This document shows, piece after piece, positions 39,735-41,625 of a stretch of DNA of 55,680 bases. Numbering within the stretch: position 1 is the stretch's first letter; every line of letters begins with the position of its first letter. The translations under genes were made by a program, and so were the position numbers. Below the pieces are notes generated by a model, which saw only the letters and a list, made by a program, of their open reading frames with translations, ran no database searches and was not told the DNA's origin. The stretch is from Pseudomonadota bacterium (GTDB lineage: Bacteria > Bdellovibrionota > FAC87 > UBA2466): NCBI GenBank assembly GCA_043767805.1, contig JAYUGC010000140.1, forward strand, positions 1 to 55,680. Direction: 5' to 3'.

Positions 39735-41607
39735 TGCATCTCCGGTCTACGTGATAAAGAAGGGCGGACAAGGCGGCGGGGGTGACTCCCGGGATCTTGG
39801 AAGCATCGGCAATAGTCGCCGGACGCGTCTTCGTCAGCTTCTCTCGAAGCTCATACGAGAGTCCGGCCACCCGGCCGTAATCTAGGGACGACGGGATGTG
39901 GGCTTCCTGCATTTTGGACAGGCGCTGGATTTCTTCGGCCTGCATGGCGATGTAACCCTGGTATTTCACCTCAACCTCGAGAGTTTCGATACTTTCGGGG
40001 GCGAGGGACAAACAGTCGGGATTACCCGTAAGCTCTCTGATCTCCGCCAGCCCAAGCTCCGGCCTTCGAAGGAGCTGAACTAGCGACTGATGAGCGGTCA
40101 TGGGGGCCGTACCCCAGCTCAGGAGCTTTGCCTGAACCATAGGCTCCGGCTTGAGGAAGGTTTTGTCGAGGTATTGGCGAACCCGGCCTAGAGATGCCCG
40201 GCGTTTTTCGACTTGAGCGTAATCCGCCTCGCCCAGGAGACCGATTTCCCGGCCCCGGGGACTCAACCGCAGGTCCGCGTTGTCCTCTCGTAGGGAAAGT
40301 CGGTATTCCGCCCGAGAAGTGAACATCCGGTACGGCTCACTAACCCCATGGGTAGTAAGGTCGTCGATCATCACGCCGAGGTAGGACTCGGCCCTGGACA
40401 AGACAAAGGGTTCCGCTTCCTGGACATTTCTCGCGGCATTGATCCCGGCAAGTAGCCCTTGGGCAGCGGCTTCTTCGTATCCTGAGGTCCCGTTCACCTG
40501 GCCCGCGAGAAAGAGTCCCGGCAGAAGGCGACTCTCTAAGGTGAGCTTCAGGTCCCTGGGGTCCAGGCAGTCGTACTCCACCGCATAACCAAACCGGGCA
40601 AAGCGAACGCTCTCGCAGCCAGAGAGGGTCTTAAAGAAAGCTTCCTGCACATCCTGTGGCAGGCTAGTCGAGACGCCATTTGGATAGATCCAGTCGGAAT
40701 CGAGTGCTTCAGGCTCGAAGAAGACCTGGTGACGATCCTTATCCGGAAATTTGACCACTTTGTCCTCGATAGAAGGACAGTACCGGGGACCGATTCCCTG
40801 GATGCGCCCGCTATAGAGGGGGGAGCGGTGTAGGTTCTCCCGGATAACGTCGTGGGTACGGGCATTCGTGTACCCGAGGTAGCAGGAGACCTGTGGTAGC
40901 TCGATTCGGGTATCGAAGAAACTGAATTTGAGCGGCTGGACGTCCGGCTTCTGCTCCTCGAGCTGAGTCCAATCGATGGAGTCTCGGAAGAGGCGGGCGG
41001 GGGTACCAGTCTTTAGCCTTAGGATGCGGAATCCTTCCGTTGCCAGAAAGTCTGAGAGGCCCTCCGAGCTCGCCTCACCAGTCCGGCCTCCGGACGAGGT
41101 CGTTTCTCCGCAATGGAGCACGCCTTTCATGAAAGTGCCGGCGGTCACTACGACCGCTGACGCCTCTAGGGATTCTTCGCCCTTAGGAGTAGAGAGCAAG
41201 GCTCCCGTGACTTTCCCATTTTCCACATGGACCCGCTTCAGCTCTCCCTGGACGATCTCGAGGTTTGGTTGAGCCTTGAGGACTCCCTGCATGCGGACGG
41301 CATAGAGATTCTTGTCAGACTGGCAGCGCGATGAACGAACCGCGCTCCCCTTCCTCATATTGAGACGTTTGAAGTGAATAGCGGTGAAATCGGCGTTCCG
41401 GCCCATCTCTCCGCCGAGCGCATCCACCTCTTTGACGAGCTGTCCTTTGCCCACCCCACCGATGGAGGGGTTGCAGCTCATGACGGCGATTTTGGACGGG
41501 TCGAGGGATACCAAAAGCGTGGACACACCCATCCGAGCGCTGGCTAATGCCGCCTCACAACCGGCGTGACCGCCTCCGGCCACTATGACTCCGAATTTTT
41601 TAACGAC
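39709..41607 (-). CDS. mnmG: tRNA uridine-5-carboxymethylaminomethyl modification enzyme MnmG (GidA); start unresolved
   Basis: Motifs KKFGVIVAGGGHAGCEAA, MSCNPSIGG, RLKTGTP.R, GPRYCPSIEDK, AGQ.NGT.GYEEAAAQG and YRMFTSRAEYRL. The first in-frame GTG (41583) lies inside the FAD-binding motif. Confidence 0.97.
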   Translation of the reverse strand, partial: VVKKFGVIVAGGGHAGCEAALASARMGVSTLLVSLDPSKIAVMSCNPSIGGVGKGQLVKEVDALGGEMGRNADFTAIHFKRLNMRKGSAVRSSRCQSDKNLYAVRMQGVLKAQPNLEIVQGELKRVHVENGKVTGALLSTPKGEESLEASAVVVTAGTFMKGVLHCGETTSSGGRTGEASSEGLSDFLATEGFRILRLKTGTPARLFRDSIDWTQLEEQKPDVQPLKFSFFDTRIELPQVSCYLGYTNARTHDVIRENLHRSPLYSGRIQGIGPRYCPSIEDKVVKFPDKDRHQVFFEPEALDSDWIYPNGVSTSLPQDVQEAFFKTLSGCESVRFARFGYAVEYDCLDPRDLKLTLESRLLPGLFLAGQVNGTSGYEEAAAQGLLAGINAARNVQEAEPFVLSRAESYLGVMIDDLTTHGVSEPYRMFTSRAEYRLSLREDNADLRLSPRGREIGLLGEADYAQVEKRRASLGRVRQYLDKTFLKPEPMVQAKLLSWGTAPMTAHQSLVQLLRRPELGLAEIRELTGNPDCLSLAPESIETLEVEVKYQGYIAMQAEEIQRLSKMQEAHIPSSLDYGRVAGLSYELREKLTKTRPATIADASKIPGVTPAALSALLYHVDRRCNARPGPAV

Positions 41608-41625
41608 CGCACCCTCTCACCATTC

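Follow-up and report, generated by a model that had tools for sequence, protein, structure and literature searches.

Background

Some bacterial genes are known to reach their product through an unusual decoding event. Release factor 2 (prfB) is made through a +1 autoregulatory frameshift, and infC (IF3) of E. coli is autoregulated through its AUU start codon. In dnaX and IS elements a -1 shift takes place on the heptamer A_AAA_AAG, as presented in the accessible text of PMC4066793. At a different level, the 16-mer TGTTCCACGTGGAACA, which is present twice at the locus described here, is exactly the parS2/parS3 sequence of P. aeruginosa given in the accessible text of PMC4368675 and is contained in the parS_Bb oligonucleotide of B. 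bacteriovorus given in that of bioRxiv 10.1101/2023.06.27.546657.

The present locus is the mnmE-mnmG region in the genome of an uncultured sediment bacterium of the Bdellovibrionota, analysed within a window of 55,680 nucleotides (the whole stretch of DNA studied). An initial annotation had pointed out that mnmG lacks a canonical start before its first strand and had proposed, among other options, a prfB-like feedback loop. We suggest instead that mnmG carries a real, lineage-specific defect of its start in this one genome, not a recoding device, with at most leaky production of full-length MnmG; of the explanations weighed below this is the best one, and in our judgement it stands about evenly poised between right and wrong. 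In the following, G000 denotes the genome under study and G001 the sole other species of its genus in the collections. The coordinates of all features are given in Table 1.

Table 1. Features of the mnmE-mnmG region, with positions in the window
Feature	Position	Strand	Evidence or remark
Two parS-like sites, one mismatch each	39077..39123	.	rsmG/parA junction; the final codons of the rsmG ORF overlap the second site
MnmG reading frame	39709..41616	-	Opens after TGA 41619-41617, stop 39709-39711; translation, Pfam, identity with G001
GTG, first canonical in-frame start	41581..41583	-	After FGVIV; GGAG (41592-41589) 5 nt upstream
Nine-codon upstream ORF GTG...TAG (MRSLKNSES)	41583..41612	-	Needs a -1 shift to enter MnmG; TAG 41585-41583
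A6 run	41596..41601	-	Encodes Lys-Lys (AAA AAA) in MnmG; seen as A-AAA-AAT in the frame of GTG 41612
Seven-codon upstream ORF ATG...TAA (MVRGCGR)	41600..41623	-	+1 relative to MnmG; TAA 41602-41600
GTT (Val), favoured lost or leaky start	41602..41604	-	Codon best placed for the Shine-Dalgarno match; duplex ends 5 nt upstream
GTC (Val)	41605..41607	-	Counterpart of the G001 ATG start in a gap-free alignment
Shine-Dalgarno-like stretch GGTGAGAGGGTG	41610..41621	-	-6.6 kcal/mol anti-SD duplex; k-mer spacing profile
Dispersed palindrome copy (TCTTAAAAGGT..ACCTTTTAAGA)	41626..41654	.	29 nt; alignment gap: in G000, missing at the same place in G001
parS site TGTTCCACGTGGAACA	41659..41674	.	Second parS of the mnmE-mnmG spacer
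parS site TGTTCCACGTGGAACA	41689..41704	.	Adjoins the mnmE stop; position of the mnmG start codon in family relatives
mnmE (trmE), intact, 452 aa	41708..43066	-	Ends FCIGK-TGA, as in G001; Pfam TrmE_N, MMR_HSR1 (GTPase), MnmE_helical

The mnmG frame and its missing start

The open-reading-frame listing calls mnmG from a GTG (39709..41583, 624 aa). Beyond TGA 41619-41617 on the minus strand, the open frame reads GAG GGT GCG GTC GTT AAA AAA TTC GGA GTC ATA GTG (41583-41581); with all three frames read, its first in-frame ATG, GTG or TTG is this GTG, located beyond the FGVIV strand, and the sequence and frames described in the initial annotation were reproduced exactly. A protein begun at GTG 41583 would lack the first strand of its FAD-binding fold and have only two residues before GGGHAG. 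At least nine residues precede the GxGHxG motif in all the relatives that carry it (115/115, among the 120 closest database relatives), and the claim that translation must begin upstream of this GTG is upheld.

The frame encodes the catalytic and FAD-binding GIDA domain (PF01134, E 2.3e-152). The match spans positions 2-390 of the 391-position profile, and position 2 corresponds to the V in FGVIV, before GTG 41583. The frame also encodes the two C-terminal helical domains (PF21680, E 5e-16; PF13932, E 2.2e-20), PDB chains of MnmG match it at E 1e-32, and the protein is 84% identical to MnmG of G001. The strand and the GxGHxG loop are encoded in frame with no usable ATG, GTG or TTG before them, and the partner gene mnmE is present and intact. 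Since the VVKKF residues are homologous to real MnmG N-termini (2zxh has VVDEFDVVVIGGGHAG, and relatives show K-x-[FY]-G-V), translation should begin at or before AAA 41601. Read-through of TGA 41619 was considered as a source of the start and set aside, since mnmE closes with FCIGK-TGA in G000 and G001 alike and our own reading of the sequence gave no in-frame start codon further upstream. No second mnmG copy was found in the genome: the sole other match, to residues 310-417, lies in an open frame of 452 aa, and a comparable second weak match is present in 27 of 30 relatives.

Comparison with relatives

Wherever the 5' end of mnmG was readable in a relative, an in-frame ATG, GTG or TTG precedes the strand (41/41; 28/28 and 13/13, in two sets). 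The mnmG gene of G001 begins ATG GCA AAA CGG TAC GGA GTC, and the counterpart in G000 reads GTC GTT AAA AAA TTC GGA GTC; in the alignment, the ATG of G001 stands two codons before the K, at the position where G000 carries GTC. Near this ordinary ATG, G001 has neither the A6 run nor a matching upstream ORF. The genus is represented in the collections by G000 and G001 only, and with a single sister species the age of the defect is not fixed.

Closer relatives were sought by scanning metagenome contigs with a back-translated VIVAGGGHAGCEA pattern. This gave 30 loci, none close enough to be informative: the 29 comparable ones are at most 66% identical over 51-100 residues, and the thirtieth (L048) ends after 13 residues. 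The best match in the protein database is 84% identical (P0001, MAKRYGVIV.., the N-terminus read in G001) and the next one 66%, the G000 protein itself being absent from the database listing. Five of the 120 closest database relatives are called without the FAD loop (P0077, P0078, P0107, P0106 and P0116, the last two maybe partial), and a search of the 34 family genomes with P0077 gave nothing above 81% identity.

The body of the gene is strongly constrained, with a dN/dS of 0.08 between G000 and G001 at a saturated dS of 1.47, and none of 11 outgroups revealed an excess of rate on the G000 branch (chi-square at most 2.27). This lack of decay is a point against a lesion, which would have to be very recent unless the gene still works.

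Reliability of the sequence

The contigs of runs X1, X2 and X3, which are 4.4 to 6.7 kb long over the mnmG start and come from a different assembler, each cover 41300-41900 in one piece with 0 differing letters and 0 gaps at a depth of 7-8 per run, in a comparison of contigs, which hide minority variants, from runs of one study that is maybe the source of the assembly itself, X1 and X2 being perhaps one data set and X4 having no piece over the start region. As the six-A run and its neighbouring bases are identical in separately built contigs of three runs, a slip of the assembly is unlikely, and the one-base error in the A run that the initial annotation kept as its null explanation finds no support, six A being present in all three.

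It could still be argued that the true start is canonical (GTG at 41604, A7, or GG) and obscured by a sequence or assembly error, given that the genome is a metagenome bin of 204 contigs with such a low local depth and that the runs may be the assembly's own source. We nevertheless regard this as very unlikely: besides the agreement of the contigs, no other gene is broken or split in the window, where 47 long ORFs are found and 94% of the sequence is coding, and the Logan assembly word (k=31) exceeds the length of the parS and palindrome repeats, which makes a chimeric join improbable. A strongly deleterious allele of a near-universal gene is, for its part, an unexpected consensus in three runs, and this counts against a lesion.

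Candidate start codons and ribosome-binding geometry

With -6.6 kcal/mol, the Shine-Dalgarno-like stretch upstream of mnmG ranks in the top quarter when set beside 522 confident ATG starts. Since this value is also attained by roughly one random position in ten, the match is only moderately special, another point against a lesion. The spacing of 5 nt that separates it from GTT 41604 is the modal spacing of strong-SD genes in this genome. A start there would give the N-terminus (M)KKFGVIVAGGGHAGCEAALASAR, and an N-terminus of the corresponding length (nine residues, M/V-K-Q...) is present in 10 of the 115 relatives. DNA was read for two of these ten, L016 and L021, and in both the start codon is the inner GTG of parS, a position to which GTT 41604 is probably equivalent.

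The start codons of the two upstream ORFs are less well placed. ATG 41623 has a weak match (-2.9) and abuts the palindrome hairpin, and the match at GTG 41612 is at spacing 0 in the duplex model. At GTG 41583 the model gives -6.1 kcal/mol with a paired stretch ending 4 nt before the codon. No near-cognate start (AUU, AUC, AUA or CUG) is found in frame before the mnmG strand, the sole one, ATA 41586, coming after it. We know of no report of GUU or GUC as natural bacterial start codons, which also weighs against the reading proposed here. The option of a GTC or GTT start behind GAGAGG, raised in the initial annotation, has the best ribosome-binding geometry; it is easier to understand as a start that was damaged than as one designed for regulation.

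parS sites and the dispersed palindrome

In 29 of the 30 assessable family relatives, a parS-like site lies over the mnmG start just after mnmE and encodes (M/L/V/R)FHV(K/E). Both members of the genus lack this start and have parS upstream of mnmG instead. Four of the five parS matches of the genome (at most two mismatches) are on this contig, flanking mnmG-rsmG beside a ParA-type ATPase gene; judged from sequence, the palindrome match, the few copies and the clustering near parA are those of a chromosomal parS, to which ParB is predicted to bind.

The palindrome just upstream of mnmG has 26 copies in the G000 genome and 0 in a shuffle. With a stricter pattern, 19 sites were found in G000 and 3 in G001 (reversed-pattern control, 0), and 17 of the 19 are not spanned by a long ORF, many being within a few bases of a gene 3' end. 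A link with a Y1 (RAYT-type) transposase was rejected, the genome having three weak PF01797 matches with no palindrome within 3 kb. In the Rfam scan of 41300-41900, none of the six weak matches reached its gathering score, and each is due to the palindromes. No tRNA was found in the window, and in 41450-41850 no sigma-70-like site was found and the single terminator-like match is parS itself.

A lesion of the start and the alternatives

We propose that the start defect arose on a young and disturbed 5' end, as indicated by the loss of the parS start in the genus and the G000-only palindrome upstream. The family state is an mnmG starting on parS directly after mnmE; in this genus parS has moved upstream into the spacer and a new short 5' end of mnmG arose, and in G000 the 29-nt palindrome has landed just upstream of the start. 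The simplest ancestor would have had GTG at 41604-41602, one substitution away. In the present allele, ribosomes placed by GGTGAGAGGGTG would start rarely on GUU 41604 or on the neighbouring GUC, at about 0.01-1% of an AUG start if the E. coli measurements for non-near-cognate codons in the accessible text of bioRxiv 10.1101/063800 apply, and would yield little full-length (M)KKFGVIVAGGGH... MnmG. The bulk of initiation would take place at GTG 41583, giving a protein without the first Rossmann strand that is probably inactive. The allele would therefore be a hypomorph or a very young pseudogene.

An unlikely alternative, which keeps some weight, is that the start was lost by a one-base indel and not by a substitution, either A7 to A6 behind GTG 41612 (ancestral MRSLKKFGVIV..) or GG to GGG behind ATG 41623 (ancestral MVRGAVVKKFGVIV..), in which case full-length MnmG would depend entirely on ribosomal or transcriptional slippage that is spontaneous and unselected. 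A single step leads back to either ancestor, the N-termini of both are plausible, and homopolymer indels are frequent mutations. On sequence alone these two ancestors fit as well as a substituted GTG, which is also a point against the lesion as we have drawn it. GGTG 41621-41618 lies 5 nt before GTG 41612, where the spacing of that k-mer peaks in the genome, and in our own reading of the alignment TAAGAGAATGG of G000 resembles TAAGAAATGG around the G001 start, but the TAAGA likeness belongs partly to the arm of the inserted palindrome. Against an indel also stand the poor initiation geometry of GTG 41612 and ATG 41623 noted above and the A6 run, which is short for transcriptional slippage. Ribosomal slippage would be rare as well, since in the accessible text of PMC4066793 shift-prone heptamers without stimulators reach only 2-10 times the 0.055% background of E. 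coli, and the 18 motifs do not include A_AAA_AAU that were chosen there for a frequency above 0.10% and under-representation.

Could the arrangement be an evolved recoding device? MnmG would then be made solely through -1 slippage on A-AAA-AAT or +1 shifting at AGA-GGG, codons of tRNAs modified by MnmEG, and low modification would raise MnmG in a homeostatic loop of the prfB kind, recent and restricted to one lineage. The X_XXY_YYZ heptamer A_AAA_AAT is indeed in phase with the GTG 41612 frame, GAGG lies 11 nt upstream of it, like the dnaX stimulator spacing, and the strong constraint on the gene body without rate excess suggests that some full-length product is probably still needed. However, any AAA-AAA Lys-Lys pair looks like a slippery heptamer from the neighbouring frame, and such pairs make up 610 of the 3286 Lys-Lys pairs (19%) in the long ORFs of the genome, which also has 2409 A/T runs of exactly six. 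The heptamer, correctly phased as the initial annotation had said, is thus no more than expected by chance, and it is missing in G001. No downstream structure beyond that of shuffles was found (fold z -1.3 and -1.8; -1.35 for the orthologous G001 stretch). A prfB-type +1 site is not present either, as CGT-TAA gives no re-pairing in the +1 frame and GAGG ends 7 nt before CGT. Both upstream ORFs initiate poorly, the efficiency expected from E. coli is low, and literature searches over titles and the starts of abstracts gave no paper on recoding of mnmG/gidA itself. The frameshift site with its out-of-frame start is found in 0 of the 41 relatives, sister species included, and the feedback loop consequently fails the conservation test that had been proposed for it. 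We consider this device, and with it the homeostatic loop, highly improbable.

The least probable reading of all, that GTG 41583 is the true start of a functional MnmG lacking its first beta strand (N-terminus MAGGGHAGCEAALASAR), has a canonical codon, a good Shine-Dalgarno match and the choice of the ORF caller in its favour, against the residues kept before GxGHxG by every motif-bearing relative, the GIDA and FAD-binding profiles that begin upstream, the same GGA GTC ATA GTG being plain coding sequence in G001, and the place of the first strand as the core of the dinucleotide-binding fold.

Returning to the start defect, its practical consequence is that automatic annotation will call mnmG from GTG 41583, silently without the FAD-binding strand, and the record deserves a flag. 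The locus would also illustrate how a start codon that doubles as a centromere site is lost and then rebuilt, the rebuilt start being fragile. If MnmG is still needed, as the gene-body constraint suggests, this would be a natural housekeeping enzyme on a very weak non-canonical start. The case would have far greater weight if the feedback reading were true, which the comparative evidence opposes.

Comparison with known systems

Among described systems, dnaX and the IS elements share with mnmG an A-rich heptamer and a Shine-Dalgarno-like element about 11 nt upstream (accessible text of PMC4066793), whereas the mnmG heptamer ends in U and not G, has no clear downstream stimulator, is read from a 0-frame ORF of nine codons with a poor start and occurs in no relative. 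The likeness to prfB is one of idea, a factor controlling its own synthesis via a frameshift that its activity suppresses; mnmG, in contrast, has no CUU-UGA-type site, no Shine-Dalgarno sequence 3 nt upstream of the shift codon and no conservation. With infC it shares a non-canonical start in a translation-related gene, by which expression would be tied to initiation fidelity, but the AUU of infC is near-cognate and kept across relatives, while the GUU and GUC candidates of mnmG each have two mismatches to AUG and no part of the arrangement is conserved. As regards parS, the 16-mer of G000 is identical to the published site of the B. bacteriovorus ParABS system, and this genus differs from the parS-on-start arrangement of its family in having two copies in the spacer, outside the coding sequence, G000 being the one case where the rebuilt mnmG start is non-canonical. 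Finally, the locus resembles start-codon-loss, hypomorphic or young-pseudogene alleles of housekeeping genes, in which an intact, constrained gene has no canonical start in a single genome but has one in every relative. It differs from them in that the mnmG body is without relaxation and a well-placed Shine-Dalgarno match remains, which makes low-level non-canonical expression plausible rather than outright death of the gene.

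Organisation of the mnmG 5' end

The mnmG gene on the minus strand of the window most likely has a rebuilt 5' end whose start was damaged in this lineage alone. The identity of the protein is beyond doubt, since its product matches the Pfam GIDA profile (E 2.3e-152) and both C-terminal domains; its same-strand neighbours are yidC, mnmE, rsmG and a ParA-type ATPase gene. Positions 41581-41625 read exactly as the initial annotation transcribed them. Past a TGA (41619-41617), the MnmG frame runs GAG GGT GCG GTC GTT AAA AAA TTC GGA GTC ATA GTG GCC GGA GGC GGT CAC, so that the first in-frame ATG, GTG or TTG is GTG 41583, from which ORF calling yields a 624-aa gene.

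This GTG has a GGAG 5 nt upstream and a Shine-Dalgarno (SD) match of -6.1 kcal/mol, in which pairing stops 4 nt short of the codon, but it was rejected as the natural start on three grounds. The Pfam profile starts upstream of it, at the V of FGVIV; the in-frame residues VVKKFGVIVAGGGHAG match VVDEFDVVVIGGGHAG in an alignment with the solved Aquifex enzyme 2zxh; and at least nine residues precede the GxGHxG loop in all 115 of the 120 closest database relatives that have it (the remaining five being called without the loop), when a start at GTG 41583 would leave just two. The initial observation that no in-frame start precedes the FAD-binding strand, recovered here with the same sequence and frames, therefore holds, as does its corollary that the actual start must lie further upstream.

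Separately, three MnmG relatives on long contigs (P0077, P0078 and P0107, 60-63% identity) have gene calls that start at a Met or Val beyond the FAD loop and so lack the GxGHxG motif; more cases of a disrupted mnmG 5' end in the clade may lie behind them. We also noted that the TAG stop (41583-41585) of the nine-codon ORF opening at GTG 41612 shares one base with GTG 41583 (TAGTG), a stop-start overlap of the coupling type; in G001, the sole other species of the genus, this ATA GTG is simply part of the coding sequence, and the overlap is thus probably incidental.

Features around mnmG and example sites of the dispersed palindrome (G000, genome of the window)
Feature	Position	Strand	Basis or remark
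Upstream ORF MVRGCGR*	opens at ATG 41623	minus	translation
Upstream ORF MRSLKNSES*	opens at GTG 41612	minus	translation
Dispersed palindrome copy, TCTTAAAAGGT..ACCTTTTAAGA	41626-41654		29 of the ~41 extra bases
parS, perfect TGTTCCACGTGGAACA	41659-41674		motif match
parS, perfect TGTTCCACGTGGAACA	41689-41704		motif match
parS-like, one mismatch	39077-39092		motif match
parS-like, one mismatch	39108-39123		motif match
Example palindrome site	G000:C12:134-158
Example palindrome site	G000:C53:75925-75949

Start codons in relatives

The search found MnmG in every one of 31 genomes, that of the window included. The mnmG 5' end was included in 29 of the 30 fetched loci, and the 28 relatives among these all have an in-frame ATG, GTG or TTG ahead of the strand. 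Fourteen more family members gave 13 readable 5' ends (one was cut by a contig end), all with a canonical start, which brings the canonical in-frame starts to 41 of 41 readable relatives. G001 (84% protein identity) begins TAA GAA ATG GCA AAA CGG TAC GGA GTC ATA GTG, that is MAKRYGVIVAGGGH, and its aligned 5' end lacks the run of six A, the out-of-frame start and any matching upstream ORF, the state named in advance by the initial annotation as refuting its frameshift loop. Neither a pattern scan of metagenome contigs nor a search of 5.8 billion proteins returned a relative closer than G001.

parS sites and a dispersed palindrome

The family comprises 34 genomes, and 30 of the 33 relatives could be assessed (contig ends truncate G009 and G044, and G037 had no match). 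In 29 of these 30, the first mnmG codons are (ATG/TTG/AGG) TTC CAC GTG (A/G)AA CA, a few bases past the mnmE stop, a parS-like palindrome giving the start codon and first five residues (FHVK/E). Judged by its sequence, this family start is a centromere site of the parS type: the 16-mer TGTTCCACGTGGAACA is identical to parS2/parS3 of P. aeruginosa (PMC4368675) and is contained in the parS_Bb oligonucleotide of B. bacteriovorus (bioRxiv 10.1101/2023.06.27.546657). Both G000 and G001 have two perfect parS between mnmE and mnmG, of which the first occupies the place of the ancestral start, and their mnmG coding begins after this pair with a new short N-end; parS no longer lies within the coding sequence in this genus. 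The G000 genome holds only five parS-like matches at up to two mismatches, four of them on the window's contig, flanking mnmG-rsmG beside the ParA-type gene.

Other contigs of the sediment metagenomes (runs X1-X4) match the two parS palindromes only, as pairs ~60 to 820 bases apart, so other organisms in the samples carry the identical parS sequence. Beyond the yidC end of the cluster, long plus-strand ORFs of 434, 118, 378, 819 and 831 aa (45663-53879) look like dnaA, dnaN, gyrB and gyrA by size and order, and the window therefore probably spans the replication origin region.

Aligned with G001, G000 carries an excess of ~41 bases between its second parS and mnmG, most of them a copy of a dispersed palindrome of the form TCTTAAAAGGT(N5-9)ACCTTTTAAGA, whose outer arms are conserved and whose inner stems are variable and self-complementary. 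The G000 genome contains 26 copies vs none in a shuffle; a stricter pattern found 19 sites vs three in G001, and none with the reversed-pattern control. Seventeen of the 19 are not spanned by any long ORF, many lie within a few bases of gene 3' ends, and no Y1-transposase match was found near any of the copies. Given the parS shift and this insertion, the mnmG start region is young, with a further disturbance in G000.

Candidate start codon

From the conserved GGA GTC ATA GTG, a gap-free alignment places ATG GCA AAA CGG TAC of G001 over GTC GTT AAA AAA TTC of G000. This genome makes use of SD sites, GGAG and GAGG peaking 5-8 nt ahead of starts, and GGTGAGAGGGTG (41621-41610) forms a -6.6 kcal/mol duplex with the anti-SD that ends 5 nt before GTT 41604. 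Compared with 522 confident ATG starts, this match ranks in the strongest quarter and has the modal spacing; since about one in ten random positions equals it, the geometry is supportive, not decisive. In 10 of 115 relatives the N-end has exactly nine residues (M/V-K-Q..), as a 41604 start would give, and the two of these read as DNA (loci L016 and L021) start at the inner GTG of parS, which would be equivalent to 41604. With this geometry and these N-ends, a GTG to GTT change at 41602 would be the simplest history. Two other one-step histories are possible: A7 to A6 behind GTG 41612, whose SD match has a spacing of 0, and GG to GGG behind ATG 41623, which has only -2.9 kcal/mol and adjoins the palindrome hairpin.

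Sequence error and frameshifting

The initial annotation took a one-base error in the six-A run as its null explanation. The window is a contig of a metagenome bin of 204 contigs, and the stretch is present in four public runs (X1-X4), all from one sediment-metagenome study. Separately built contigs of X1, X2 and X3 span 41300-41900 in one piece at depth 7-8, with no other letter and no gap, which excludes a slip of a single assembler and speaks against the null; moreover, coding sequence fills 94% of the window, which has 47 long ORFs and no split genes. The bin may itself have been built from these runs, and X1 may be the same data set as X2, so the agreement is not independent biology, and the comparison is at contig level, where minority variants are invisible. 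We consider a sequence error very improbable.

The initial interpretation is supported in part. Among the three options first proposed, the GTC/GTT start fits best by its SD geometry, whereas the prfB-like feedback loop, by a -1 slip from GTG 41612 or a +1 shift from ATG 41623, found no support: its arrangement of out-of-frame start and heptamer, proposed for a conservation check, occurs in 0 of 41 relatives, G001 included. Viable only as a very recent, single-lineage invention, the loop is very improbable. The heptamer arises automatically from an AAA-AAA pair (43% of Lys codons are AAA, 610 of the 3286 Lys-Lys pairs are AAA-AAA, and A/T runs of six number 2409 in the genome); the fold downstream does not stand out and resembles that of G001, and both upstream ORFs have poor initiation sites. 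Among the papers listed for mnmG/gidA with frameshift, start codon or autoregulation, none reported recoding of this gene in its title or abstract opening.

Constraint and predicted expression

The dN/dS of the mnmG body against G001 is 0.08 (dS saturated at 1.47), and the G000 branch is not faster than the G001 branch with any of 11 outgroups (largest chi-square 2.27). The body is thus strongly constrained, which points to a very recent defect or to continued synthesis of some full-length MnmG. The bulk of initiation would fall on GTG 41583 and give a strand-less, probably inactive protein; SD-directed initiation at GUU 41604, favoured for its geometry, would give full-length MnmG. Such damage is commonplace in kind, if notable for its location, and would matter little unless expression data pointed elsewhere. 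In E. coli, non-near-cognate codons initiate at ~0.01-1% of AUG (bioRxiv 10.1101/063800); shift-prone heptamers without stimulators reach 2-10 times a 0.055% background, A_AAA_AAC is rated inefficient and A_AAA_AAU lies outside the 18 motifs chosen for frequency >0.10% and under-representation (PMC4066793). At such rates, any route would yield ~1% or less of normal MnmG expression.
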